From a virus (lineage: Duplodnaviria; Heunggongvirae; Uroviricota; Caudoviricetes), in the IMG/VR virus record IMGVR_UViG_3300022750_000190: 64,000 bases of DNA. One strand, given 5' to 3'. Both the position numbers and the translations under genes were made by a program. How positions within the stretch are numbered: the first letter of the stretch is position 1; each line of letters starts with the position of its first letter. This document shows positions 1,853 to 59,194 of the stretch, in pieces. The notes beneath the pieces are model-generated. The model made no database searches. It worked only from the letters and a program-made list of their open reading frames with translations, and had not been told where the DNA came from.

Positions 1853-1937
1853 GCCCGGTTGGTGAAATTGGTAGACACATGAGACTTAAAATCTCCCGCC
1901 GAAGGGTGTGCCGGTTCGAGTCCGGCACCGGGCACCA
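1853..1937 (+). tRNA. tRNA-Leu(UAA), type II, CCA encoded (copy 1 of 3)
   Basis: Hand fold: acceptor GCCCGGU/ACCGGGC, Leu-type D-arm GGTGAAATTGGTAGAC, anticodon loop CUUAAAA, long variable arm, T-loop TTCGAGT, A73 and CCA. Confidence 0.85.
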
Positions 1938-1969
1938 AATATTAATTTATTATATGCAGGGTAATATTT

Positions 1970-2167
1970 ATGGCTGGTTATATTCATACTGACATTAAAG
2001 AAATTATGGATGACGCTGCTGATCCATCAACAGGAACAGATGATGTTAAATCATGTTTTCCTTCTACTGTTGGTTGGTCAGATGAACAGTTGAAAACGCT
2101 GAATGTGCTTCTTCAATATTCTTGGAATCGTGGCTATAAATCAGCTTGCCAAGACCTTGCAGAATAA
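1970..2167 (+). CDS. hypothetical small protein
   Basis: 65-aa ORF between tRNAs with upstream AGGGTAA. Confidence 0.4.
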   Translation: MAGYIHTDIKEIMDDAADPSTGTDDVKSCFPSTVGWSDEQLKTLNVLLQYSWNRGYKSACQDLAE

Positions 2168-2173
2168 AGCAAT

Positions 2174-2250
2174 GCCCCTTTAGCTCAGTTGGTTAGAGCG
2201 TCCGACTCATAATCGGCAGGTCGTAAGTTCAAGTCTTACAAGGGGCACCA
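2174..2250 (+). tRNA. tRNA with CAU anticodon (Met or lysidine-type Ile2), CCA encoded
   Basis: Acceptor GCCCCUU/AAGGGGC, D-arm GCTCAGTTGGTTAGAGC, anticodon loop CUCAUAA, T-arm GTAAGTTCAAGTCTTAC. The TTCAAGTCC T-arm and CTCATAATCG loop resemble bacterial tRNA-Ile2. Confidence 0.8.
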
Positions 2251-2275
2251 TTGATAAATATAGAGACTATCTAAA

Positions 2276-2599
2276 ATGGCAGAGCAAGAAAAAACTCGTT
2301 TTGAATTGTTTCATGCAAAAGCCAAATCGGATATATCGGCTTATAGAGACAATTTGAGAGGCGATGGTTCATTTGAATTTATTGCACAAGTACTTCAACT
2401 TGAAAGACTTTCTCATAAAATAAACCAAAACATGCTGAGTTATTTGTTTGGTGATATTTTGGGGCGTCATTTGGCTGTAAAATTTGCTACAGATTGTAAT
2501 CGAAACTTGTTATCTTTTTTGTCTAAATTGACTGAAGAATATAGAATTTTCATTTTGTATGAACTTAAAAATAATAAAAATTTGCTTGCTTATTGCTGA
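2276..2599 (+). CDS. hypothetical protein
   Basis: 107-aa ORF between tRNA genes. Confidence 0.45.
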   Translation: MAEQEKTRFELFHAKAKSDISAYRDNLRGDGSFEFIAQVLQLERLSHKINQNMLSYLFGDILGRHLAVKFATDCNRNLLSFLSKLTEEYRIFILYELKNNKNLLAYC

Positions 2600-2606
2600 C
2601 AAAAAT

Positions 2607-2683
2607 GGTCCCTTAGCTCAGTTGGTTAGAGCGTCCGACTCATAATCGGCAGGTCGTAGGTTCAAGTCCTACAGGGACCACCA
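2607..2683 (+). tRNA. tRNA with CAU anticodon (second species), CCA encoded
   Basis: Acceptor GGUCCCU/AGGGACC, same D-arm and anticodon-arm core as 2174-2250, T-arm GTAGGTTCAAGTCCTAC. Confidence 0.8.
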
Positions 2684-2705
2684 CTATACATATAAAGAGG
2701 TTTTA

Positions 2706-2990
2706 ATGCCGAATTTTCATGCTCACTCTCTGCCTCATAATGAGAACCTTATTGATAAGAAAGTAATTGTTTATACAAAAGACAAAATGACTATCGGTAT
2801 TCTTTGTAAAGTAGACCAAGTAGTTTATGGTGTAAAATCAACATACACAGTTATTGTTGATGAGCAACAGGTTAGAGTTCAAGGTATTTTGATTCCTTAC
2901 TCTTTAACTATTGAACATGACATCAAAGTTTCACCAGAATTAGCTACGGAAAATTTTATTTTTGCTCCATTCCGTCTAGAAGATTTTTAA
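2706..2990 (+). CDS. hypothetical protein
   Basis: 94-aa ORF with AAAGAGG about 8 nt upstream of the ATG. Confidence 0.45.
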   Translation: MPNFHAHSLPHNENLIDKKVIVYTKDKMTIGILCKVDQVVYGVKSTYTVIVDEQQVRVQGILIPYSLTIEHDIKVSPELATENFIFAPFRLEDF

Positions 2991-3053
2991 AAAATATTTT
3001 CTTAATGCTAAATTATAATGCTCCAAGTGTTTGAAAAATAAGTAAAAAAGTTG

Positions 3054-3082
3054 TTGACAAGAGTTTCGAAAGACGTTAAGAT
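3054..3082 (+). promoter_or_regulatory. sigma70-like promoter TTGACA-17-TAAGAT upstream of tRNA-Ser
   Basis: TTGACA at 3054-3059 and TAAGAT at 3077-3082. It shares the upstream element GAAAAATAAGTAAAA-AGTTGTTGACAAG with the promoter at 4521. Confidence 0.55.
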
Positions 3083-3113
3083 AGTTACACAAAGCAAGAA
3101 AATGTAATAATAT

Positions 3114-3201
3114 GGATGAATGGCCGAGTGGTTTAAGGCAGCAGTCTTGAAAACTGCCGGGTGTAACAGCCCCTAGAGTTCGAATCTCTATTCATCCGCC
3201 A
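3114..3201 (+). tRNA. tRNA-Ser(UGA), type II, CCA encoded
   Basis: Acceptor GGAUGAA/UUCAUCC, anticodon stem GCAGU/ACUGC with loop CUUGAAA, long variable arm, T-arm TAGAGTTCGAATCTCTA, G73, CCA. Confidence 0.85.
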
Positions 3202-3205
3202 ATTT

Positions 3206-3291
3206 GGGAAGTAGTTTAGCGGTTAAAACATCAAGACTCCTGCAGGCTGAGTTTTGAAGATGGGACAGTTCGAATCTGTCCTTTCCCACCA
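3206..3291 (+). tRNA. atypical tRNA-like gene (extended anticodon arm; anticodon not assignable)
   Basis: Acceptor GGGAAGU/CUUUCCC, D-arm GTTTAGCGGTTAAAAC, T-arm GACAGTTCGAATCTGTC, A73 and CCA are all tRNA-like. The anticodon region folds as a 9-bp stem UCAAGACUC/GAGUUUUGA with a 9-nt loop CUGCAGGCU. Confidence 0.35.
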
Positions 3292-3428
3292 GTTATGTGG
3301 CTTAGTCAGCGACACACCTAACCAAGAGGCTTAAGACTCTAATTAGTGGTGGTCAGGATTGTTTACGCTGGCAAACTCCTTTAGCGGGGAGATCTGAGGG
3401 TTCGAGACCCTATGGCTGCGTCGAAAAT
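3292..3428 (+). other. unassigned structured segment with an orphan T-arm-like motif (GGGTTCGAGACCC)
   Basis: T-arm-like hairpin at about 3396-3413. No complementary acceptor 5' strand was found by hand within 130 nt. Confidence 0.2.
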
Positions 3429-3505
3429 TGGTATACGGCTCTGGTGAAGAGTGTGAATCGGTCACTTAATCATGTATGTAGGTTCGAGTCCTACTATACC
3501 AGCCA
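3429..3505 (+). tRNA. tRNA-like gene, 77 nt, CCA encoded; anticodon arm could not be folded by hand
   Basis: Perfect acceptor UGGUAUA/UAUACCA, D-arm GCTC-TGGTGAA-GAGT, T-arm GTAGGTTCGAGTCCTAC, G73 and CCA. The 24-nt middle gives no canonical 5-bp stem with a 7-nt loop. Confidence 0.4.
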
Positions 3506-3604
3506 GTTTTAAATGAGATGGCGGTTCAATGCCGCTTCTGGCTCTTGCAAGTTCCGGCTGGGGTTGGTAGTATAATTTGGTAATTACGCATTTAAAACAT
3601 TTTT

Positions 3605-3681
3605 GCGTCCGTAGCTCAGTTGGATAGAGCATCCGCCTTCTAAGCGGATGGCCACTGGTTCGAGTCCAGTCGGACGCACCA
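3605..3681 (+). tRNA. tRNA-Arg(UCU), CCA encoded (copy 1 of 2)
   Basis: Acceptor GCGUCCG/CGGACGC, D-arm GCTCAGTTGGATAGAGC, anticodon stem UCCGC/GCGGA with loop CUUCUAA, T-arm ACTGGTTCGAGTCCAGT, A73, CCA. Confidence 0.85.
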
Positions 3682-3710
3682 AATCTAAAATGAAGCTTTC
3701 ATAGATTATT

Positions 3711-4243
3711 TTAGACGAGTCCTTCGGGACGCTGCATTATCGTCACAAGTGTTATCCAATATGGCAACTTCTATTGGATGAACGACGATATTGTAGGTTG
3801 GAAGTTGCAAAATTCAGGATTTAAAGAACGGTAAAACCAATGCTGATATAGGTTGGTTTTGGGCTAGTCCTTCGGGGCGCTGCATTATCGCCCAAGCGTC
3901 AATCAATATGGCAACTTCTATTGATTGAACGACGATAGTGCAGTTTTGAAGTTGTGATTTTTGTTCCAAAATACGATAGAACTATGTTTTATCCAATCCT
4001 TCGGGGTGCTTAAATATTGTCAAAGTGTCAAATAACATGGCAACTTCTGTTATATGAACGATGATATTTCGGTTTGGGAGTTGCAAGATTTGATGTTGTA
4101 AAGAACGGTAAAGGCAGTGCTGATATAGACTGACTTTGGGCTAGTCCTTCGGGGCGCTGTTACAATGCCGGTGTGTCAATCAGTATGGTGTCTTCTGTTG
4201 ATTGAATGACGTTGCTAACAGTTAGGGAAGACACATTTTTTTT
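3711..4243 (+). ncRNA. tandem array of four homologous structured RNA elements of about 140 nt, organised as a duplicated dimer, ending in an intrinsic terminator
   Basis: Units begin near 3717, 3867, 3996 and 4144, each with a UUCG-capped hairpin GUCC-UUCG-GGAC. They share a long-range helix (GCUGCAUUAUCG...CGACGAUAUUG) and an internal hairpin. The 19-mer CTAGTCCTTCGGGGCGCTG is identical at 3863 and 4141. Compensatory changes keep pairing (GCAACUUC/GAAGUUGC in units 1-3 versus GUGUCUUC/GAAGACAC in unit 4). U8 tract at 4236-4243. Confidence 0.5.
4187..4243 (+). terminator. intrinsic terminator closing the structured-RNA array
   Basis: Stem GTGTCTTC...GAAGACAC with a nested CTGTT/AACAG hairpin, followed by TTTTTTTT. 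Confidence 0.5.
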
Positions 4244-4275
4244 GTTACATTATTTTGTCACGAAGAGAGGTTATT

Positions 4276-4485
4276 ATGTCATTAGTTGAATTTGGTTTGA
4301 ATACAGGTTTTAATTATCGTCTTCAAAAAGATGCTGATGCTATTAATGATAAATACAATAACAAAATCAAAAACACTTCTTTTCGTGGTGAAATTGTAAA
4401 ACTTGATACACAAAGGCGTGATGAATTAAGCAAATTGCATACTTCACATGGCAAAAAATATCAAGGTAGGGGATTCATCGAATAA
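4276..4485 (+). CDS. hypothetical small protein
   Basis: ATG at 4276 preceded by AAGAGAGG 6 nt upstream. The track ORF starts at TTG 4255. Confidence 0.45.
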   Translation: MSLVEFGLNTGFNYRLQKDADAINDKYNNKIKNTSFRGEIVKLDTQRRDELSKLHTSHGKKYQGRGFIE

Positions 4486-4520
4486 TGCTTCAAACGATTG
4501 AAAAATAAGTAAAATAGTTG

Positions 4521-4549
4521 TTGACAAGGGTGTTGCAGGACGATAGAAT
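4521..4549 (+). promoter_or_regulatory. sigma70-like promoter TTGACA-17-TAGAAT for tRNA-Leu copy 2
   Basis: TTGACA at 4521-4526 and TAGAAT at 4544-4549. The leader TAGTCACACAAAG is shared with the copies at 1819 and 30500. Confidence 0.6.
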
Positions 4550-4580
4550 AGTCACACAAAGCGAGAAGATACAAAGCAAT

Positions 4581-4665
4581 GCCCGGTTGGTGAAATTGGT
4601 AGACACATGAGACTTAAAATCTCCCGCCGAAGGGTGTGCCGGTTCGAGTCCGGCACCGGGCACCA
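4581..4665 (+). tRNA. tRNA-Leu(UAA), copy 2 (identical to 1853-1937)
   Basis: Sequence identical to copy 1. Confidence 0.85.
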
Positions 4666-4678
4666 AATGTTGTAAAAT

Positions 4679-4762
4679 GCGTATGTGGTGGAATGGCATA
4701 CACGCTAGTCTAAGAAGCTAGTGCCGAAAGGCTTGTGGGTTCGAGTCCCATTGTACGCACCA
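4679..4762 (+). tRNA. type-II tRNA, Leu-like; anticodon reads AAG in the hand fold
   Basis: Acceptor GCGUAUG/UGUACGC (two GU pairs), anticodon stem CUAGU/GCUAG with loop CUAAGAA, 13-nt variable arm UGCCGAAAGGCUU, T-arm GTGGGTTCGAGTCCCAT, A73, CCA. A34 is unusual, so the assignment is tentative. Confidence 0.55.
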
Positions 4763-4770
4763 GAAAAAGA

Positions 4771-4799
4771 TTGACGTGATAGTTTGAATGTTGTATAAT
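4771..4799 (+). promoter_or_regulatory. sigma70-like promoter TTGACG-17-TATAAT upstream of tRNA-like RNA A
   Basis: TTGACG at 4771-4776 and TATAAT at 4794-4799. Confidence 0.6.
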
Positions 4800-4819
4800 T
4801 ATCACATATTACAGAATAT

Positions 4820-4989
4820 GGGTACTACCCAACTGGATCATTTGGCGTTGTCATACGTGCAGACAACAATATATGTGTAAGTGGGGGTTAAGCGAGATAT
4901 TAGTATTTATTGTTGGATGAGACCGCACGTACTCGGAAAGCTTTAAAGAAAGTAGTAGCTTGTTGGTTCGATTCCATCAGTATCCGCCA
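4820..4989 (+). ncRNA. tRNA-like structured RNA A, about 170 nt, with tRNA acceptor stem, T-arm and CCA (insert-containing tRNA or stable RNA)
   Basis: 5' GGGUACU pairs with 3' AGUAUCC, followed by G73 and CCA. T-arm GTTGGTTCGATTCCATC, D-arm-like CCAA-CTGGATCAT-TTGG, and a 6-bp hairpin GUUGUC-AUACGUGCA-GACAAC. Homologous to 10644-10808. Confidence 0.5.
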
Positions 4990-5001
4990 GACGTTTAAAA
5001 T

Positions 5002-5078
5002 GGGCCTTTAGCTCAGTTGGTCAGAGCACTCGACTCATAATCGATTGGTCGTAGGTTCAAGTCCTACAAGGCCCACCA
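5002..5078 (+). tRNA. tRNA with CAU anticodon (third species), CCA encoded
   Basis: Acceptor GGGCCUU/AAGGCCC, U8, D-arm GCTCAGTTGGTCAGAGC, anticodon loop CUCAUAA, T-arm GTAGGTTCAAGTCCTAC. Confidence 0.8.
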
Positions 5079-5151
5079 TTTTAAAGAATACGGGAATTGA
5101 ACTGTAAAGGTTCAAGATGATCTAGCGTAGGATAGGGGCGACGATCAAAAT

Positions 5152-5236
5152 GCAAGTGTAAAGGTGCGGTAGTGTAGCCTCTGGCAGCGACGGCATCAAG
5201 TTGGTTACGGTGGTTCGAATCCATCTTCTTGCACCA
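5152..5236 (+). tRNA. tRNA-like gene of about 85 nt with canonical T-arm and CCA; 5' half not resolvable by hand
   Basis: T-arm GGTGGTTCGAATCCATC, then UUCUUGC-A-CCA. The best 5' partner, GCAAGUG, pairs at 5-6 positions. The internal GGTAGTGTAGCC looks like a D-arm. Confidence 0.3.
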
Positions 5237-5290
5237 ATGTTGTGGCGGCTTATGCCCAAACCTACTGTAAAATGGCAAAATAAGCAATAT

Positions 5291-5379
5291 GGGGAGGTAG
5301 CTCAGTTGGTCAGAGCGAATAACATAGATTCTAGAGTCTCGTTATGATGTCGGTGGTTCGAATCCACCCCTCCCCACCA
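5291..5379 (+). tRNA. atypical tRNA-like gene, 89 nt, with a perfect tRNA frame but a 17-nt insertion in the anticodon arm
   Basis: Acceptor GGGGAGG/CCUCCCC, U8, D-arm GCTCAGTTGGTCAGAGC, T-arm GGTGGTTCGAATCCACC, A73, CCA. Anticodon stem AUAAC/GUUAU encloses AUAGAUUCUAGAGUCUC. Confidence 0.4.
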
Positions 5380-5394
5380 GCTTCATGAAACAAT

Positions 5395-5470
5395 TGGCGA
5401 ATAGCTCAGTTGGTAGAGCGACGGACTGTTAATCCGTTGGTCGTAGGTTCGAGTCCTACTCCGCCAGCCA
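5395..5470 (+). tRNA. tRNA-Asn(GUU), CCA encoded
   Basis: Acceptor UGGCGAA/UCCGCCA (one mismatch), D-arm GCTCAGTTGGTAGAGC, anticodon stem ACGGA/UCCGU with loop CUGUUAA, T-arm GTAGGTTCGAGTCCTAC, G73. Confidence 0.8.
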
Positions 5471-5527
5471 AACACGGCTCAACTTGTTTAGTTGTATAAA
5501 ACACTGTTGAGTTCTTTAAACCATACC

Positions 5528-5648
5528 TTTCACGCTTCTTTATAGCGCACCAGAAAGGTTATTGATTCATGGATATTTCACGCTTTTAAGCGCACCAGAA
5601 ATATCGAAAGAGAATACTTTTCACGCTTCTTGTAGGCGCACCAGAAAA
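5528..5648 (+). repeat. three tandem copies of a mini-hairpin motif TTTCACGC-loop-GCGCACCAGAAA
   Basis: Copies at about 5528-5556, 5577-5602 and 5619-5648, each a short CGC/GCG hairpin followed by CACCAGAAA. They resemble tRNA 3' acceptor-plus-CCA ends. Confidence 0.5.
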
Positions 5649-5655
5649 GTAGTTT

Positions 5656-5731
5656 GCCGATTTAGCTCAGTTGGTAGAGCAACCGCCTTGTAAGCGGTAG
5701 GTCGTGAGTTCGAGTCCCACAATCGGCACCA
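5656..5731 (+). tRNA. tRNA-Thr(UGU), CCA encoded
   Basis: Acceptor GCCGAUU/AAUCGGC, anticodon stem ACCGC/GCGGU with loop CUUGUAA, T-arm GTGAGTTCGAGTCCCAC, A73. Confidence 0.85.
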
Positions 5732-5830
5732 GTTTTTGTATCAGCGTTGCCACCCTAAGCAAGGTGCGGAAAAAGGCTATTGGAACATAGAGGTTCGAAT
5801 CCTCGGCAGCGTTGGTGCAGAAAGTATTAA
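5732..5830 (+). other. degenerate tRNA-like segment: T-arm GAGGTTCGAATCCTC without a matching acceptor stem
   Basis: T-arm motif at about 5789-5806. The flanks carry a direct repeat CAGCGTTG rather than complementary strands. Confidence 0.25.
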
Positions 5831-5950
5831 ATGCAGTGAAGGTCTTTGTTTTGATCTTCTTTTCCATAATCCGACCCCCTCCTAGGATTTTGGATTAGTG
5901 TCCCACTGCTAAAGACCTCTTCAGTTTATCGAAGGGGCACTATTAAAATG
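5831..5950 (+). other. structured spacer with a long-range helix GAAGGUCUUU / AAAGACCUC and a nested AAUCC/GGAUU hairpin
   Basis: 5838-5847 is complementary to 5911-5919. A possible leader for the downstream tRNA-like gene. Confidence 0.25.
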
Positions 5951-6019
5951 CTAGACGCTCAGTCGGGAGCCATCGCATGTTAGCGATACAGTTAGGGTTC
6001 AAATCCCTTTTCTAGACCA
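5951..6019 (+). tRNA. short (about 69 nt) tRNA-like gene with a reduced D-arm; anticodon loop AUGUUAG (GUU-like)
   Basis: Anticodon arm AUCGC-AUGUUAG-GCGAU, T-arm AGGGTTCAAATCCCT, 3' UUUCUAG-A-CCA, acceptor 5 bp. The D region is only about 14 nt. Confidence 0.3.
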
Positions 6020-6119
6020 TACGGAAGATGTTTATACAAAAAGGATAAAAGGAATTTAATTAGTTATTATTAAAATATCCAAACTCAAAAAGTCAATAAA
6101 CTTTTAAGAGGATAATAAA

Positions 6120-6326
6120 ATGAGAACTAAATTGAAGATTTACGCAATGGATTTGGGATGGAGAGGGAGCATCATTGTTGTAGCAGAAAACATGGATGAA
6201 GCAAGGAAATTAATGGAGAATGAAGCAAACTATAAGGAATACCATGAAGGAATGGATGAGAAGGAAGAAATAACGGAACACAAAATTGCAAAAGGATTTA
6301 AATGGACGGATCACGGAGATATGTAA
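6120..6326 (+). CDS. hypothetical small protein (paralog of 6529-6714)
   Basis: RBS AAGAGGA 7 nt upstream. Shares LKIYAMDLGWRGS...EEA with 6529-6714. Confidence 0.5.
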   Translation: MRTKLKIYAMDLGWRGSIIVVAENMDEARKLMENEANYKEYHEGMDEKEEITEHKIAKGFKWTDHGDM

Positions 6327-6337
6327 TAAAAATGGAA

Positions 6338-6388
6338 CTGGTTTAACCCTGAGAGTGTATAACTGATGGGCTAAACCAGTATTTTTTT
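6338..6388 (+). terminator. intrinsic terminator
   Basis: Stem CTGGTTTA/TAAACCAG followed by TATTTTTTT. Confidence 0.6.
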
Positions 6389-6407
6389 GCCTAATGAAAA
6401 ATAATCC

Positions 6408-6436
6408 TTGCTTAAAATAGACTTGCTTAGTATAAT
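6408..6436 (+). promoter_or_regulatory. sigma70-like promoter TTGCTT-17-TATAAT
   Basis: TTGCTT at 6408-6413 and TATAAT at 6431-6436. The 15-mer TGAGAGTGTATAACT at 6456-6470 is repeated from 6350-6364. Confidence 0.45.
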
Positions 6437-6528
6437 AACCACATCAAACAGAGCATGAGAGTGTATAACTAATTGCTTGATTGACAAACCAAATGAAGAT
6501 AAAGAATAATCTAATTTGGAGAAACAAA

Positions 6529-6714
6529 ATGTTAAAATTGTATGTTGCATGTATGGGTTGGGAAGGTTCTGCTGTTGCAATTGCTCACTCGAAAGAAGAA
6601 GCAATTCAGATGATTACGGAAAATCATTATCGTTTTGGAGAAGAGCATCATAAATATGTTGAAGAGTTTCCTTTTCAACAAGGTTATGTAAATGGAGATT
6701 CAGGAGACGCATAA
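6529..6714 (+). CDS. hypothetical small protein (paralog of 6120-6326)
   Basis: ATG at 6529 with GGAGAAAC upstream. The track ORF starts at 6481 in the same frame. The stop codon TAA lies in the loop of hairpin GAGACGC-ATAA-GCGTCTC. Confidence 0.5.
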   Translation: MLKLYVACMGWEGSAVAIAHSKEEAIQMITENHYRFGEEHHKYVEEFPFQQGYVNGDSGDA

Positions 6715-6793
6715 GCGTCTCAAACTACTTTTAAAGCAGCAAATCCTTTGTAGCAAGAGCTATGGTGCAAACTAACTATAGAGGATATACAAA

Positions 6794-7096
6794 ATGACTG
6801 ATGCATATATTTTAAAAGAAGTTGAAGCCGTTACTACAATCGCTAAAAATATTTTTGGTGACATTGTTCATAAAGTCTATTATGCAGAAGTGCATTATGA
6901 CCATAGAGAAGAATCTCAAACCATCAGTATGATTGATAGACAAATAACAAGTGCTTGCAACTCAGAAAAATCGATTGACCAAGATGCAAAAACAATTATT
7001 ATTGAGTTTACAAATGGTCGAAAAGTAGTATTCTCAAACTCCGAATGGGGTAGCATGGAGGCTTTTTCTGATGATGAGTATAAAAAGATTGTTTAA
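6794..7096 (+). CDS. hypothetical protein
   Basis: 100-aa ORF with RBS GAGGAT. Confidence 0.45.
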   Translation: MTDAYILKEVEAVTTIAKNIFGDIVHKVYYAEVHYDHREESQTISMIDRQITSACNSEKSIDQDAKTIIIEFTNGRKVVFSNSEWGSMEAFSDDEYKKIV

Positions 7097-7121
7097 TTGC
7101 ATCAAACAGTTAAATTAAATC

Positions 7122-7150
7122 TTGATAACCTTGTTTCATTGTTGTATGAT
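7122..7150 (+). promoter_or_regulatory. sigma70-like promoter TTGATA-17-TATGAT upstream of the tRNA at 7319
   Basis: TTGATA at 7122-7127 and TATGAT at 7145-7150. The leader contains UUCG-capped and other hairpins. Confidence 0.45.
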
Positions 7151-7318
7151 ATGTTTCTGAAAGAGTGATGTATGCACTACTGTTGATAATCCTGAGTTAT
7201 CAATGGAACGTGCCTTGCGATGACAACTTCGGTTGTTCTGACCGCATCAGTTAGACATTGAGGCTAGTTAATAACTCTCTCTTTGTGGCTGATGTGTCAG
7301 TAGATACAATGCTCCTTT

Positions 7319-7395
7319 GGGCCTTTAGCTCAGTTGGTCAGAGCACTCGACTCATAATCGATTGGTCGTAGGTTCAAGTCCTACAAGGCCCACCA
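7319..7395 (+). tRNA. tRNA with CAU anticodon (identical to 5002-5078)
   Basis: Identical 77-nt sequence. Confidence 0.8.
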
Positions 7396-11895: not shown

Positions 11896-12759
11896 ATGTC
11901 TATCAAAATTGGAAATATGCTTTTAGAAAATAACAACCTTCTGCACAAGAACAGTATAATTGAACTTAATCACTTAAGTGAATTTAATGATTTCTTGTCT
12001 TTCACACAAAACAAAATAGTAGAAGCTATTTCGGAATTGATTGAACCCATGAATCTAAGATTGATTCGATTCAATAATGAACTACAAATCATAAAAGTAA
12101 CTGATAATGAAAATGAATATTCAGCAACTCAACATTATCTAATGTTGAACAAATACTCTCTTGATGAAAATAGAGAGAATTTTGAATCTGACCTAAACTT
12201 TATTATTGGTTACAATTTGTTAATTTATATACTTTCCCAAAAGGAAGAAAACAAACATTTAGAGTTAGATGGTATTCAAATTACACAATATATTATGTCC
12301 AAAGCTTGGACTTCTGGATTTGTAACAGAAAAACAATTTGATGAATATTATATGAGTATTTACAAACATGAAAATCGAATTAATTTATTTTATAATACAA
12401 ATTATAAAACTAAACAACCATCACCTCATACTTTGGCAAAACCAATAACATTTAATTTTGGAAATTATGATTCAATTCTTACAACAGATTATATATTTAA
12501 ATATCCACATTCTGATATTGTAGTTTTTGATGATTATATTATTTTCAACCAATACGCTCATACTCTAAAAATTAAAAATAATTCCAGTTCTCTTTTTGAA
12601 CAAATTCCTGAAGGAACTTCTATGTTTAAATATATTAATAAGTTTAGAGTAGAGAAAACAAAAATAAGACCCAAGAATACAACAAGTACATTTTCTGAAA
12701 ACTATATGATTGTTTTAAGACATCAAAATCCATCAATACCAAGAATAAGTCTTTATTAA
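11896..12759 (+). CDS. hypothetical protein
   Basis: 287-aa ORF. Confidence 0.5.
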   Translation: MSIKIGNMLLENNNLLHKNSIIELNHLSEFNDFLSFTQNKIVEAISELIEPMNLRLIRFNNELQIIKVTDNENEYSATQHYLMLNKYSLDENRENFESDLNFIIGYNLLIYILSQKEENKHLELDGIQITQYIMSKAWTSGFVTEKQFDEYYMSIYKHENRINLFYNTNYKTKQPSPHTLAKPITFNFGNYDSILTTDYIFKYPHSDIVVFDDYIIFNQYAHTLKIKNNSSSLFEQIPEGTSMFKYINKFRVEKTKIRPKNTTSTFSENYMIVLRHQNPSIPRISLY

Positions 12760-12785
12760 GCCAGATTACTCTGGCTTATTTTCAT
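12757..12785. terminator. bidirectional terminator
   Basis: GCCAGATTACTCTGGC followed by TTATTTT. Confidence 0.5.
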
Positions 12786-24736: not shown

Positions 24737-24813
24737 GTCCGTATAGCTCAGATGGATAGAGCAACAGCCTTCTAAGCTGTGGGTCGTAGGTTCGAATCCT
24801 ACTGCGGATACCA
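24737..24813 (+). tRNA. tRNA-Arg(UCU), CCA encoded (copy 2, a distinct sequence)
   Basis: Acceptor GUCCGUA/UGCGGAU, D-arm GCTCAGATGGATAGAGC, anticodon stem ACAGC/GCUGU with loop CUUCUAA, T-arm GTAGGTTCGAATCCTAC. Confidence 0.85.
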
Positions 24814-30510: not shown

Positions 30511-30595
30511 GCCCGGTTGGTGAAATTGGTAGACACATGAGACTTAAAATCTCCCGCCGAAAGGTGTGCCGGTTCGAGTCCGGCACCGGGCACCA
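30511..30595 (+). tRNA. tRNA-Leu(UAA), copy 3 (one substitution in the variable arm)
   Basis: Identical to 1853-1937 except CCGAAAGG versus CCGAAGGG. Confidence 0.85.
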
Positions 30596-33671: not shown

Positions 33672-34667
33672 ATGGCAATAATTCTAACAGGCGATAGACC
33701 AACAGGTTCCCTTCATTTAGGGCATTATATCGGCTCGCTTCGAAATCGTGTGGCGTTGCAACACGAACACACTCAATATCTGTTAATTGCCGATAATCAA
33801 GCATTAACAGATAACATGGGAAATCCCATGAAAGTTCGTGATAATATCATTGAAGTTGCAAAAGACTACCTTGCTTCTGGCATTGAACCAACTAAAACAA
33901 CTATTGCTATTCAATCTTTGCTCCCTGCAATTGCTGAATTAACTCTTTTGTATATGAACTTTGTTACTGTTTCTCGTTTAGAACGAAACCCAACAATTCG
34001 TGATGAAATCAAGTCAAGAAACTTTGGTCGTGATATTCCAGCAGGGTTCCTTGCTTATCCTGTTGCACAAGCAGCCGATATAACAGCATTTAAAGCCTCT
34101 TTAGTGCCTGTTGGTGAAGATCAAGCTCCATTGATTGAACAAGCTAACGAAGTTGTTAAAAAGGTTAACAGACAAGCTGAAAAAGAAATTCTTCCCGAAA
34201 TTACTGCTTTGATTCCAACCATTGGTAGACTTCCAAGTCTTGATGGGAAATCAAAAATGAGTAAATCTTTAGGTAATACAATCAATCTTTATTCCAGTAA
34301 TGACGAAATTACCAAAGCTGTTCGAGCTATGTTTACTGACCCAACTCATATTAAAGTATCAGATCCGGGGAAAGTTGATGGCAACGTAGTATTTACTTAC
34401 TTAGACGCTTTTGATACGAATCTTGAAGAACTTAATGCTTTGAAAGAACATTATATTCGTGGTGGACTTGGCGATTCCGTTATCAAGAAAAGGCTAACAG
34501 AGATCTTAATTGAAACATTAACTCCTATTCGTGAAAAAAGACTTCAATTGAATAATGAACACGAATATGTTCTTAGTGTATTAAAACAAGGGACAGACAT
34601 TGCAAGAGAAGTAACTCAAACCAATTTAAATGAAATCAAAAGACATTTAAATATGTTTTCTTTTTGA
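33672..34667 (+). CDS. trpS: tryptophanyl-tRNA synthetase
   Basis: HIGH-type motif TGDRPTGSLHLGHY, VPVGEDQ, YPVAQAADI and KMSKS, collinear with bacterial TrpRS. 331 aa. Confidence 0.85.
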   Translation: MAIILTGDRPTGSLHLGHYIGSLRNRVALQHEHTQYLLIADNQALTDNMGNPMKVRDNIIEVAKDYLASGIEPTKTTIAIQSLLPAIAELTLLYMNFVTVSRLERNPTIRDEIKSRNFGRDIPAGFLAYPVAQAADITAFKASLVPVGEDQAPLIEQANEVVKKVNRQAEKEILPEITALIPTIGRLPSLDGKSKMSKSLGNTINLYSSNDEITKAVRAMFTDPTHIKVSDPGKVDGNVVFTYLDAFDTNLEELNALKEHYIRGGLGDSVIKKRLTEILIETLTPIREKRLQLNNEHEYVLSVLKQGTDIAREVTQTNLNEIKRHLNMFSF

Positions 34668-44545: not shown

Positions 44546-45151
44546 ATGACCACAAATACTTCAAAAATCATTTCTTTACTTGTTAAGGAAAAATGCTTTA
44601 CAGAAAGAAAGGATGATCTTGGTTATATTGATTCTGGTTCTAATCACTATTTTGAAATGATGCTTAACAAATTAAAGGATTCTGATTATTTTAATAGTTC
44701 AAAGCGTCAATTAACTGAATTAAAACCCTATTTTAATTCAAGTGAAGAACTTTTGGAATATTATGAATTTTTAATGAACTCAATTCACATGGATGAAATC
44801 AAAAGAATAGTAACTTCTATTTTTTCGCATTGTGATTTAATTCATGATGAGATGCATGTTGTATTGATTAAGGCCAAGTATCACCCCAATGAAGCAACAG
44901 GAAGACAAACTTTTATTAAAGATGTTAATAATAAAATTGAACGAATCAGATTGATAATTTCAGGATATAACACGCTCCAAAATCCTGAACATATTCATTT
45001 TGAAATAAAAGGTCTTAAAAGTATTTTTAAAGCAAATAACTTTTTTAACATTGTAATTGATAGATTAGCAGATTCTATATACGAAGACACAAAAACTTTG
45101 TTTAGTCACAAAAAATCAATGTTAAATCATAACGAAGAAAAAGCCTCGTAA
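44546..45151 (+). CDS. hypothetical protein
   Basis: 201 aa. The stop codon TAA sits in the GTAA loop of hairpin AAGCCTC-GTAA-GAGGCTT. Confidence 0.5.
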   Translation: MTTNTSKIISLLVKEKCFTERKDDLGYIDSGSNHYFEMMLNKLKDSDYFNSSKRQLTELKPYFNSSEELLEYYEFLMNSIHMDEIKRIVTSIFSHCDLIHDEMHVVLIKAKYHPNEATGRQTFIKDVNNKIERIRLIISGYNTLQNPEHIHFEIKGLKSIFKANNFFNIVIDRLADSIYEDTKTLFSHKKSMLNHNEEKAS

Positions 45152-45165
45152 GAGGCTTTATATTT
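45141..45165. terminator. bidirectional terminator hairpin containing the stop codon of 44546-45151 in its loop
   Basis: AAGCCTC GTAA GAGGCTT followed by TATATTTT. Confidence 0.5.
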
Positions 45166-45727: not shown

Positions 45728-46381
45728 ATGAAAAATAATAAACTTCACCTTGTTGCAAAAGGTGGGCTTGTTGAAAGTTTTAAAAATAAAGAAGAAGCCT
45801 TCGAGATGTTGGGTTCTGATTTTATTAAAAAGTACGTTGGTTTTGAGCTTCGTGTTCTTAATTACGATTCTTACAATACCAGAAGGTTCTTGCAGGAAAC
45901 ATCATCTTACATCAATAATAAATGGATGAATGATGGTAAAAAACGATATGGCGAAGTTTTTAAAGATCTTTTCCCTTATTACGAACATTTGAGTTATTAT
46001 GGCTCTTATATGTTGATTAATGATTTCAATCAGAAATTTTGTATCGTTGATTTCAAGGATCTTCTTATTCACGAAAGAAGGACACAAAAAAGTAATAGCT
46101 ATTCTGACCGAAAGAAGAAATTTTGGAACGGTAATGGCTCTGTTCCGGGAACTGGTGTCCGTAACTCTAAAGCCGGATGGTCCAATACTGTTTACAAACG
46201 TCCTAAAACAATATCTGGATTGAGAAGTTCTTTTGATGTTTTTGACGATGAATATGACATCCAAGAACCTTCGGTTAGAAATAAGATGAAATTGGTTATT
46301 CGAGATGTTTGGGACGAAATTCCTAGAACTGATTGTAAAATCAATAACTGGAAAAGATACCGCAAGCAACAATACAAATAA
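45728..46381 (+). CDS. hypothetical protein
   Basis: 217-aa ORF with RBS TAGGAG. Confidence 0.5.
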   Translation: MKNNKLHLVAKGGLVESFKNKEEAFEMLGSDFIKKYVGFELRVLNYDSYNTRRFLQETSSYINNKWMNDGKKRYGEVFKDLFPYYEHLSYYGSYMLINDFNQKFCIVDFKDLLIHERRTQKSNSYSDRKKKFWNGNGSVPGTGVRNSKAGWSNTVYKRPKTISGLRSSFDVFDDEYDIQEPSVRNKMKLVIRDVWDEIPRTDCKINNWKRYRKQQYK

Positions 46382-46405
46382 GGCTCTTCGGAGCCTTTTT
46401 CTATT
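46381..46405 (+). terminator. intrinsic terminator
   Basis: GGCTCTTCGGAGCC followed by TTTTT. Confidence 0.55.
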
Positions 46406-57022: not shown

Positions 57023-57301
57023 ATGTCATATACTGACTATACGAAAGAAGAATTGGAAAGCATGAGTACTGTCATGCTCATGAGTCTTCTAAATTCGGCA
57101 AGAGCACAAATTTCAATCGGAACAAGAAATCTTGAACCTGATTGTGAAGTCTCGAAAGTTATTTCTGAGGTGTGTGTCGAACCCTTCAAAAAATTCGCCA
57201 CTCAACTTAAAGAAGTGCTAAGTACAAGAGAACACATCCCAAACAAAGAAGAACGTCGAGCTATTCGGCAACAGAAACAAAAAGAAAAACAAAGCCGCTA
57301 G
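57023..57301 (+). CDS. hypothetical protein
   Basis: 92 aa with RBS AAGGTG. The stop codon TAG lies in the loop of terminator AGCCGC-TAGTCAA-GCGGCT. Confidence 0.45.
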   Translation: MSYTDYTKEELESMSTVMLMSLLNSARAQISIGTRNLEPDCEVSKVISEVCVEPFKKFATQLKEVLSTREHIPNKEERRAIRQQKQKEKQSR

Positions 57302-57316
57302 TCAAGCGGCTTTTTC
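57293..57316. terminator. bidirectional terminator with a stop codon in the loop
   Basis: AGCCGC TAGTCAA GCGGCT followed by TTTTT. Confidence 0.55.
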
Positions 57317-57565
57317 TTATTTTAAAAAATTATAACCAGAAATATCTCTCATTTCAGGAGCTATTTCTTTTAATCTTTTAACACTTGAAAAATCTTTTAT
57401 CTTTTTATCAAAAAGAGGTTTATTTTCCTTAGTCAAAAGCAATTCTTTAAGATCCATGCTATTTATGAAATAAAGATTTCCATATTGCTCAAAAAAACGT
57501 CCTTTAATATTGTCTTCTGAATCCACAAATCTTCTTACTGTAACAATGTTGTCATTCATACCCAA
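57317..57565 (-). CDS. hypothetical small protein
   Basis: 82 aa with RBS GAGGT on the minus strand. Confidence 0.45.
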   Translation of the reverse strand: MGMNDNIVTVRRFVDSEDNIKGRFFEQYGNLYFINSMDLKELLLTKENKPLFDKKIKDFSSVKRLKEIAPEMRDISGYNFLK

Positions 57566-58680: not shown

Positions 58681-58709
58681 TTGACAAAAATGAGGTTTCG
58701 TACTATAAT
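58681..58709 (+). promoter_or_regulatory. sigma70 consensus promoter TTGACA-17-TATAAT upstream of the ArfA-like ORF
   Basis: TTGACA at 58681-58686 and TATAAT at 58704-58709. Confidence 0.6.
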
Positions 58710-58744
58710 AACAACATCAAATCAACGAAGATAGGGTTGCAATC

Positions 58745-58876
58745 ATGGCACACGCAAATCGCAGTAAGGTTCTCCAAGTGGTTCGTGAAGACCGTCTTTT
58801 CAGTCACAAGGTTGAGAAACCAAAGGCTGGCAAAGGCTCTTACAGCCGTAAAGGGCGTCAAGAAAAGCACTGGTAA
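58745..58876 (+). CDS. arfA: ArfA-like alternative ribosome-rescue factor, 43 aa (not in ORF track)
   Basis: MAHANRSKVLQVVREDRLFSHKVEKPKAGKGSYSRKGRQEKHW matches, as best I recall it, E. coli ArfA (...[28 protein letters not shown]...). Weak SD AGGG. Confidence 0.55.
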   Translation: MAHANRSKVLQVVREDRLFSHKVEKPKAGKGSYSRKGRQEKHW

Positions 58877-58887
58877 CAGTGCTTTTT
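58865..58887 (+). terminator. intrinsic terminator whose GTAA loop contains the arfA-like stop codon
   Basis: AAGCACTG GTAA CAGTGCTT followed by TTTT. TAA is at 58874-58876. Confidence 0.6.
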
Positions 58888-58903
58888 CGTCTTGAGGTTA
58901 AAA

Positions 58904-59194
58904 ATGACAATAAGAGAAAACCTTACCCTTACACACAAAACTTATATCAGTCTCCCTAAAAGCTATTGGGATAAATTTTCAACTGCAGATGTTGATTCTC
59001 TTTTAGAAAAGCTTTTTGAGTCCGAAACGTTTCTCAAAAAGAACATCACAAAACAAAACTGCAATGATTATATTGAGCATGTCCAAATTGTTGCAAAAAT
59101 ACTAAAGGAAAAAGTCAATATGCTTAGTCTCGCTGACCATATTGAAAGCTATGGTGTTGTCGTTGGCACTACATGCCTTAAAATCTTACGTTGA
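58904..59194 (+). CDS. hypothetical protein
   Basis: ATG at 58904 with GAGGT upstream. The track ORF begins at TTG 58892. Confidence 0.45.
   Translation: MTIRENLTLTHKTYISLPKSYWDKFSTADVDSLLEKLFESETFLKKNITKQNCNDYIEHVQIVAKILKEKVNMLSLADHIESYGVVVGTTCLKILR

Follow-up and report, generated by a model that had tools for sequence, protein, structure and literature searches.

An ArfA-like gene on a phage-like genome ends inside the loop of a predicted terminator hairpin

Ribosome rescue is essential in bacteria, and the searchable literature presents ArfA solely as a back-up on the chromosome, kept in check by transfer-messenger RNA (tmRNA). The hairpin of Escherichia coli arfA gives rise to a non-stop mRNA through RNase III cleavage or premature termination; the protein is active without its last 17–18 residues (54–55 amino acids), a 40-residue form is inactive and only 46–48 residues are ordered by cryo-electron microscopy (PMC8012679). 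The KH motif of the ArfA tail binds the mRNA channel and residues Q27–E30 dock release factor 2 (RF2), with tmRNA acting where about 9 nucleotides (nt) or less of mRNA extend past the P site and ArfA where about 3 nt or less do so (PMC8012679). In Neisseria gonorrhoeae arfA and Bacillus subtilis brfA the stop codon is downstream of a terminator, so that termination itself gives the non-stop mRNA (PMC8012679). Here we describe an ArfA-like gene in a 64,000-nt stretch of IMG/VR virus record IMGVR_UViG_3300022750_000190 (the window), in which a very short open reading frame (ORF) ends inside a hairpin loop.

The coding sequence is placed as follows.

58745 to 58876, plus strand: arfA-like coding sequence, 43 codons and a TAA stop, encoding MAHANRSKVLQVVREDRLFSHKVEKPKAGKGSYSRKGRQEKHW, which equals E. 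coli ArfA residues 7–49

An earlier reading of the DNA letters alone (the original prediction) had proposed this 43-codon ORF to be ArfA-like, and the profile search bore this out: the peptide scored 37.1 bits against Pfam family PF03889 (ArfA), above the gathering cutoff of 25.5 (E 2.2e-9), with residues 13–39 matching profile positions 17–43. A phmmer search of PDB returned the E. coli ArfA chains of ribosome–RF2 structures (E 5e-5) in an ungapped alignment where phage residue n is E. coli residue n+6; searches of NCBIfam and PHROGs with the 43-amino-acid peptide gave no match. The ArfA residues conserved in the phage peptide are L18, F19, V23, E24, K27, G29, G31, S32, Y33 and R35. The core elements L18-F19, H21-K22-V23-E24 and G29-K30-G31-S32-Y33 align without gaps to E. 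coli L24-F25, Q27–E30 and G35–Y39, and the basic tail KPKAGKGSYSRKGRQEKHW extends to the equivalent of E. coli residue 49. A KH pair is present at phage residues 41–42, displaced by three residues from E. coli K44-H45, and the tail may fill the empty mRNA channel. No hydrophobic C-terminal extension lies beyond the hairpin, as the ORF stops at W43 in the loop; this leaves 10 amino acids past the GSY motif, versus 16–41 in nearly all of 50 bacterial genes.

An identical 43-amino-acid protein is encoded on 44 contigs, including ones of 604 kb and 662 kb, and carries the JGI name ArfA; a sister cluster on additional contigs encodes a 44-amino-acid protein with 80% identity. By comparison with the coding region of one relative (locus L002), the window differs at 16 synonymous and 0 non-synonymous sites. 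The peptide is therefore under strong purifying selection, which rules out a pseudogene or chance ORF, and two ORFs overlapping arfA, one of 55 amino acids on the minus strand and one of 52 in the +2 frame, found no support. The GC content of arfA is 0.485 overall and 0.455 at third codon positions, the latter versus 0.18–0.28 for ten other ORFs in the window; its composition is foreign, or codon-biased for high expression. That the gene encodes an ArfA homologue, and that it resides on a phage-like genome, we regard as secure.

Expression signals upstream of the ORF are these.

58681 to 58709, plus strand: sigma-70-type promoter, with -35 TTGACA at 58681–58686, a 17-nt spacer and -10 TATAAT at 58704–58709
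58733 to 58736, plus strand: weak Shine–Dalgarno-like AGGG, 8 nt 5' of the ATG, with a putative function in translation initiation

The perfect TTGACA-17-TATAAT promoter that had been reported was recovered with a match of 12/12, and it occurs once in the 64 kb window. Sites with one mismatch or fewer numbered 15, with 1.6 expected and no shuffle reaching 15, an excess from which it follows that a host sigma-70-type polymerase evidently transcribes the region. The arfA promoter is predicted to be the strongest in the window, and transcription would start at about 58716–58718. All related lineages keep TTGAC[AT], a spacer of 16–17 nt with divergent sequence, and TATAAT; relatives also have AGG or AAGG at a comparable distance from the start codon.

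The 3' end of the gene is built into a hairpin.

58863 to 58872, plus strand: hairpin 5' arm AAAAGCACUG, encoding the C-terminal Lys41-His42-Trp43 and invariant in all lineages
58873 to 58876, plus strand: GUAA tetraloop of the GNRA type, holding the TAA stop codon (58874–58876)
58877 to 58887, plus strand: hairpin 3' arm CAGUGCUUUU (58877–58886) and T-run (58883–58887), a probable intrinsic terminator

The placing of TAA in a 4-nt GUAA loop, also part of the original prediction, holds at these positions, and the conserved hairpin is followed by a U-run. With a stem of 10–11 pairs (4 of them G-C), a GNRA loop and U5, the structure has the sequence features of an intrinsic terminator and is predicted to act as one; its energy is -13.2 kcal/mol, with -8.8 for the GC core. 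A stricter terminator rule made no call at this hairpin because the maximal A/U extension of the stem absorbs the T-run, and a separate scan of the window found 18 plus-strand terminator-like hairpins of similar style, that of arfA included.

Comparison of 18 related loci shows no variation in the -35, the -10 or the block AAAAGCACTGGT.A..CAGTGCTTTTT, whereas the DNA on either side has diverged almost past alignment. The 3' arm and T-run are non-coding yet invariant, whereas the bases that follow them diverge, and this argues for selection on structure; covariation within the window's own hairpin is not assessable because every stem pair is invariant. The loop itself has been altered at least three times, by two independent TAA to TGA changes and one TT insertion, and reads GUAA in the window, GUGA in L002 and the L012 cluster, and GUAAUU in L003. 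The stop is kept in each, and both GUAA and GUGA are GNRA tetraloops.

The reading that we favour, with a probability of about one in two, is that the gene specifies a pre-truncated, mature-length ArfA, made constitutively and early from a stop-containing mRNA, outside tmRNA control, which would recruit host RF2. The cassette of ~170 nt would be monocistronic, with a consensus host-type promoter, the 43-codon ORF and an intrinsic terminator, and the ORF would encode no more of ArfA than is ordered on the ribosome, namely the RF2-docking strand, the GKGSY loop and a basic tail that would probe the empty mRNA channel. W43 corresponds to E. coli residue 49, within the span of active or ordered E. 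coli ArfA lengths, and the phage protein would in this way end at the same point as the processed bacterial one. Transcript release in or after the U-run, 3' of the loop, would give a short and stable mRNA with its UAA retained ~11–14 nt from the 3' end; as the stop is 5' of the release point, termination alone would give no non-stop mRNA. A ribosome terminating here would have 14–17 nt of mRNA past its P-site codon, beyond the range of tmRNA and ArfA, so that ordinary termination should win and the peptide would be freed by a release factor in the usual manner, not from a non-stop message. A working stop is probably kept, and ArfA, which would be produced constitutively, early and free of repression by tmRNA–SmpB, may escape the host's normal control; its role during infection would be to bring host RF2 to ribosomes trapped on truncated messages, with ribosome recycling as the presumed benefit.

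Some observations weigh against this reading, and they concern the origin of the contig, the hairpin and the N-terminal part of the protein. No hallmark structural gene occurs within the 64 kb window, and we infer the phage origin of the 604 kb contig. It is a family trait of arfA for a hairpin to overlap the end of the coding sequence, and most phage lineages keep it; the hairpin may still hold a regulatory role here, and that of the window may be a shortened descendant of the longer arfA hairpin. The stem of the window and L003 lineages can also be extended, with a bulge, to ~15 base pairs (bp). These features suit a model in which RNase III, another nuclease, or trimming once ribosomes have opened the stem processes the hairpin at a point within the stop codon or 5' of it. 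ArfA would then be translated from a non-stop mRNA and tagged by tmRNA–SmpB, building up only once trans-translation is saturated, in a small-scale version of the bacterial feedback loop.

When 59 bacterial arfA loci were fetched and their 3' ends folded, three designs were seen. Enterobacterial ORFs of 71–72 codons run through a stem of ~21–28 bp; in Shewanella, Rheinheimera and Agarivorans a GC hairpin and U-run fall within the ORF and the stop comes 26–47 nt beyond; and in Vibrio and Pseudoalteromonas the ORF ends 16 residues past GSY with its stop in the apical loop of a 22–28 bp hairpin. These apical stops mean that the layout is already bacterial and not a phage invention, and they lend the processing model some weight. 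Other phage ArfA genes add to it. In L105 and L113–L119, with stems of 22–31 bp, the stop falls either at the apex or within the 3' arm, and the L113–L119 hairpins have 22 pairs, an apical stop and two compensatory pairs. The P0007 phages keep a stem of ~22–31 bp through the ORF, and some phage lineages clearly retain the hairpin in a long form open to processing. In L109 and L024-30 a 10-bp terminator lies within the ORF and the stop overlaps the U-run, and the P0009 phages likewise have a terminator in the ORF and an overlapping stop; in P0009 and L024-30 this arrangement could yield 3' ends that lack the stop or nearly so. A 10-bp terminator with the stop in its loop is the design of this window, and the invariance of the hairpin block despite its non-coding 3' side would also be expected of a processed structure. 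No convincing terminator-like or conserved hairpin was found at the stop in the folded 3' ends of L020-23 and L041-43, which is in line with the favoured reading.

For the window itself, however, processing appears rather unlikely. The stem is 10–11 bp with a compact GNRA loop, versus 21–28 bp in the bacterial sample. E. coli RNase III is efficient on about two helical turns, and a short GNRA-capped stem is a poor substrate. The extension of the stem (CAAGA/UCUUG) was rejected as a conserved feature, being absent from L002 and L012 and overlapping the Shine–Dalgarno sequence of the next gene. The KH motif is coded in the 5' arm and would be deleted by cleavage there, a point in favour of the stop-containing mRNA. 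The stop has survived three loop changes, whereas bacterial arfA tails past the cleavage site drift freely, and termination alone leaves the stop in the RNA. The original prediction that the non-stop logic of E. coli is hard-wired in this cassette is thus not supported as it stands for this lineage, though it retains some probability, given a stop 5' of the release point, so short a stem and the same layout at unrelated genes of the window (below).

The N-terminal third of the peptide falls outside the Pfam match and lacks the motif (G-x-I-x-D-N-A...A-L) that bacterial ArfAs have at their N-terminus. Residue Val12 aligns with E. coli Ala18, a position that is Ala in 50/50 bacterial ArfAs and Glu in sister phage lineages. 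In E. coli, an A18T substitution leaves RF2 bound and recruited but not activated, owing to steric hindrance (PMC8012679). Given the Val at this position, activation of RF2 by the 43-amino-acid peptide, and with it rescue activity, is not assured. An ArfA-derived peptide might instead fill the empty mRNA channel and A site, perhaps docking RF2, without hydrolysis; tmRNA–SmpB tagging would be blocked or RF2 sequestered, as a device for host take-over or anti-defence. The Pfam match restricted to residues 13–39 and the apparent confinement of this clade to phage-like contigs agree with such a role. We nevertheless consider it distinctly improbable: the docking strand, GKGSY loop and basic tail are conserved and the ancestral function is the simplest reading, the N-terminal part may have evolved together with the RF2 of the host, and strong conservation is equally expected of a working rescue factor.

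The region beyond the arfA stop, and other stops that lie in hairpins, suggest one more role for the loop.

58894 to 58906, plus strand: start of the next gene, with Shine–Dalgarno GAGG at 58894–58897 and ATG at 58904–58906 (the gene called at L004 3160 equals window 58904)
44546 to 45151, plus strand: ORF with its TAA (45149) in the GTAA loop of a hairpin at 45140–45159
57023 to 57301: gene with its TAG (57299) at the stem-loop junction of a hairpin at 57291–57313, a bidirectional terminator common to the convergent gene 57317–57565
12757 and 46379: two further stops overlapping stem bases (hairpins 12757–12778 and 46380–46397)

The next gene begins 28 nt past the arfA stop and no promoter was found between the terminator and this gene, so its transcription must come by read-through. 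In the window and L002, whose downstream genes differ, the arfA stop is the sole stop separating arfA from a downstream ORF in the same frame. A ribosome pausing at the loop stop could cover the 3' arm and block the hairpin, such that downstream expression would track the spacing between ribosome and polymerase; the promoter-less neighbour, the in-frame ORF and the several window genes with a stop-in-hairpin layout would all fit. This mechanism is generic and not specific to arfA, and is compatible with the favoured reading, not exclusive of it, and equally with the processing and modulator models; as the explanation of the locus it seems highly improbable. L003 and L012 do not have the downstream ORF in frame, which also rejects a read-through fusion, and the shared frame is probably a coincidence. 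The other genes ending in terminator hairpins, three to five in the window, indicate that the layout is in part a genome-wide economy.

The gene belongs to a wider set. At least 25 viral contigs in IMG/VR carry ArfA-like ORFs; among 1.84 billion representatives scanned with phmmer only 7 matched, owing to the 43-amino-acid query. The window peptide falls in a distinct clade, xVLxxVRE[DEN]xLF, found solely on phage-like contigs. In sister lineages (L105–L108 and L116–L118) ArfA is downstream of genes for a YqeY-like protein and RNA 2'-phosphotransferase (Tpt1/KptA) and upstream of rIIA/rIIB-like genes, in what looks like a small translation and RNA-repair neighbourhood. Most phage ArfA ORFs end 8–14 residues past GSY, which suggests that phages tend to encode the mature ArfA length directly. 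Salmonella phage Arash gp99c (OQ632216.1; L001 3881–4105), annotated as 'ribosomal protein L2', is ArfA-like and lies inside a tRNA cluster; its ArfA is probably 47 amino acids from an internal ATG. Pseudomonas phage pf16 (KU873925.1, complement 131775..131918; L112 1495–1638) has an unannotated ArfA-like ORF with its stop at the apex of a 9-bp hairpin, overlapped on the opposite strand by hypothetical gp199. Citromicrobium phage RXM g10 is annotated as ArfA, the sole mention of a phage ArfA that we found in the literature, where we found no functional study (PMC8953757).

Two other groups of sequences are set apart from this set. An 867-amino-acid protein among the seven phmmer matches (P0006) was rejected as an ArfA relative, being 11 tandem copies of an 80-residue unit and an apparent artefact of assembly or gene calling. 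In L032–L040, from IMG/VR, viral proteins of 138–142 amino acids carry an ArfA-like motif, KIVKPKKGKGSYTRKG, within a larger conserved protein; the ribosome-binding motif may be put to another use there.

The GC content of the window is 32%, and its small, co-directional ORFs are tightly packed and without known relatives. The whole window is identical to a stretch within a metagenomic contig of 604 kb (ENA ERZ27228643 k141_1005676); a sister lineage sits on a 662 kb contig. A near-identity search gave no match to the region in GenBank phages, PLSDB plasmids or IMG/VR. Several window ORFs match phage-only PHROGs, and on these matches, the tRNAs and the gene style a very large phage is the best reading of the source element; the lineage looks megaphage-sized and unclassified. 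Its translation genes are listed here.

1853 to 7395: array of 14–15 tRNA genes, with two outliers elsewhere in the window
3205 to 3288: extra tRNA-like element, called by Rfam and missed by ARAGORN
24737 to 24813 and 30511 to 30595: scattered tRNA copies
33672 to 34667: class I Trp/Tyr-type tRNA synthetase (TrpRS)

Duplicated tRNAs include three Leu-UAA, five Met-CAU and two Arg-UCU genes, some copies being 20–25 kb off, and the Rfam scan found nothing but tRNAs. Thymidylate synthase and an SPFH protein are also encoded in the window. The original prediction set arfA next to a tRNA array and an aminoacyl-tRNA synthetase; both do lie within the 64 kb, but at distances from the ORF of ~51 kb and ~24 kb respectively, and the immediate neighbours of arfA have no recognisable function. 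Taken as a whole, the sequence details of the original prediction are borne out, and its interpretation is partly supported. The closest TrpRS match in the phage collection (65%) is 'Acinetobacter phage MD-2021a' CAKLQH020000002.1. This was rejected as a phage, as its trpS is flanked by sucCD and lpdG and the record is a mislabelled Acinetobacter chromosome; the match is a weak hint of a Moraxellaceae-like host for the window element.

The window gene is a captured and minimised ArfA, probably deregulated, and one member of a larger group of so far unstudied phage ArfA genes that differ in 3' architecture. We propose, tentatively, that large phages acquired ArfA on repeated occasions and remodelled its control region, and that a deregulated mature-length form resulted here; alternatively, the phage-specific Val/Glu clade might use RF2 differently or trap it. 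If the favoured reading is true, a phage takes over non-stop ribosome rescue independently of tmRNA, and could return to use the ribosomes held on degraded host mRNAs, or weaken defences based on cleavage of mRNA or tRNA. A virus-borne ArfA, especially a tmRNA-free one, would join tRNAs, aminoacyl-tRNA synthetases and RNA-repair enzymes among the translation functions of large phages, and would offer a testable case of a feedback-regulated host gene rewired after capture. The series of phage 3' designs (22–31 bp stem, apical stop, terminator over the stop and no hairpin) is a natural experiment on the evolution of arfA regulation, and the 43-amino-acid minimal form, Val/Glu at position 18 and the displaced KH are natural variants for the study of RF2 activation. 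Even if the gene proves ordinary, the analysis corrects the annotation of a gene mislabelled in Arash and missed in pf16.

Among known systems, E. coli ArfA (YhdL, PF03889) shares with the phage gene the LF-x3-VEK-x-K-x-GKGSY-x-RKG core, a basic tail with KH, a 3' hairpin and the form of a small stand-alone gene. It differs in having 72 codons against 43 and a hydrophobic C-terminal extension, and its ~21 bp stem is cleaved by RNase III, whereas the phage gene has a real stop in the loop of a 10–11 bp stem that would also be its terminator. The phage N-terminus is six residues shorter and unrelated, Val replaces Ala18 and Ala replaces Lys34, KH is displaced by three residues, and the gene is on a phage-like genome. 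The N. gonorrhoeae arfA and B. subtilis brfA genes are alike in the short GC hairpin and U-run that form an intrinsic terminator at the 3' end of a rescue gene, but the window stop is upstream of the release point. Closer in layout are the Vibrio/Pseudoalteromonas-type genes (L056, L082, L085, L089, L093, L095, L099, L100 and L103), with a stop in the apical loop of a 3' hairpin; L056 is the clearest case, with a U-run after the hairpin as in the window. Their stems of 22–28 bp are long enough for RNase III, and that of V. fischeri was reportedly found to be cleaved by Schaub et al. in 2012; they also have 16 amino acids past GSY against 10 in the window, and a canonical N-terminus with Ala at position 18. 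Other phage ArfA-like ORFs (37–58 amino acids) resemble the window gene in their large phage genomes and, often, a hairpin over the stop, but come from other clades and differ in their 3' designs. Only in the window lineage and its 80%-identical sister cluster is a consensus promoter found together with a 10-bp GNRA hairpin terminator whose loop holds the stop.

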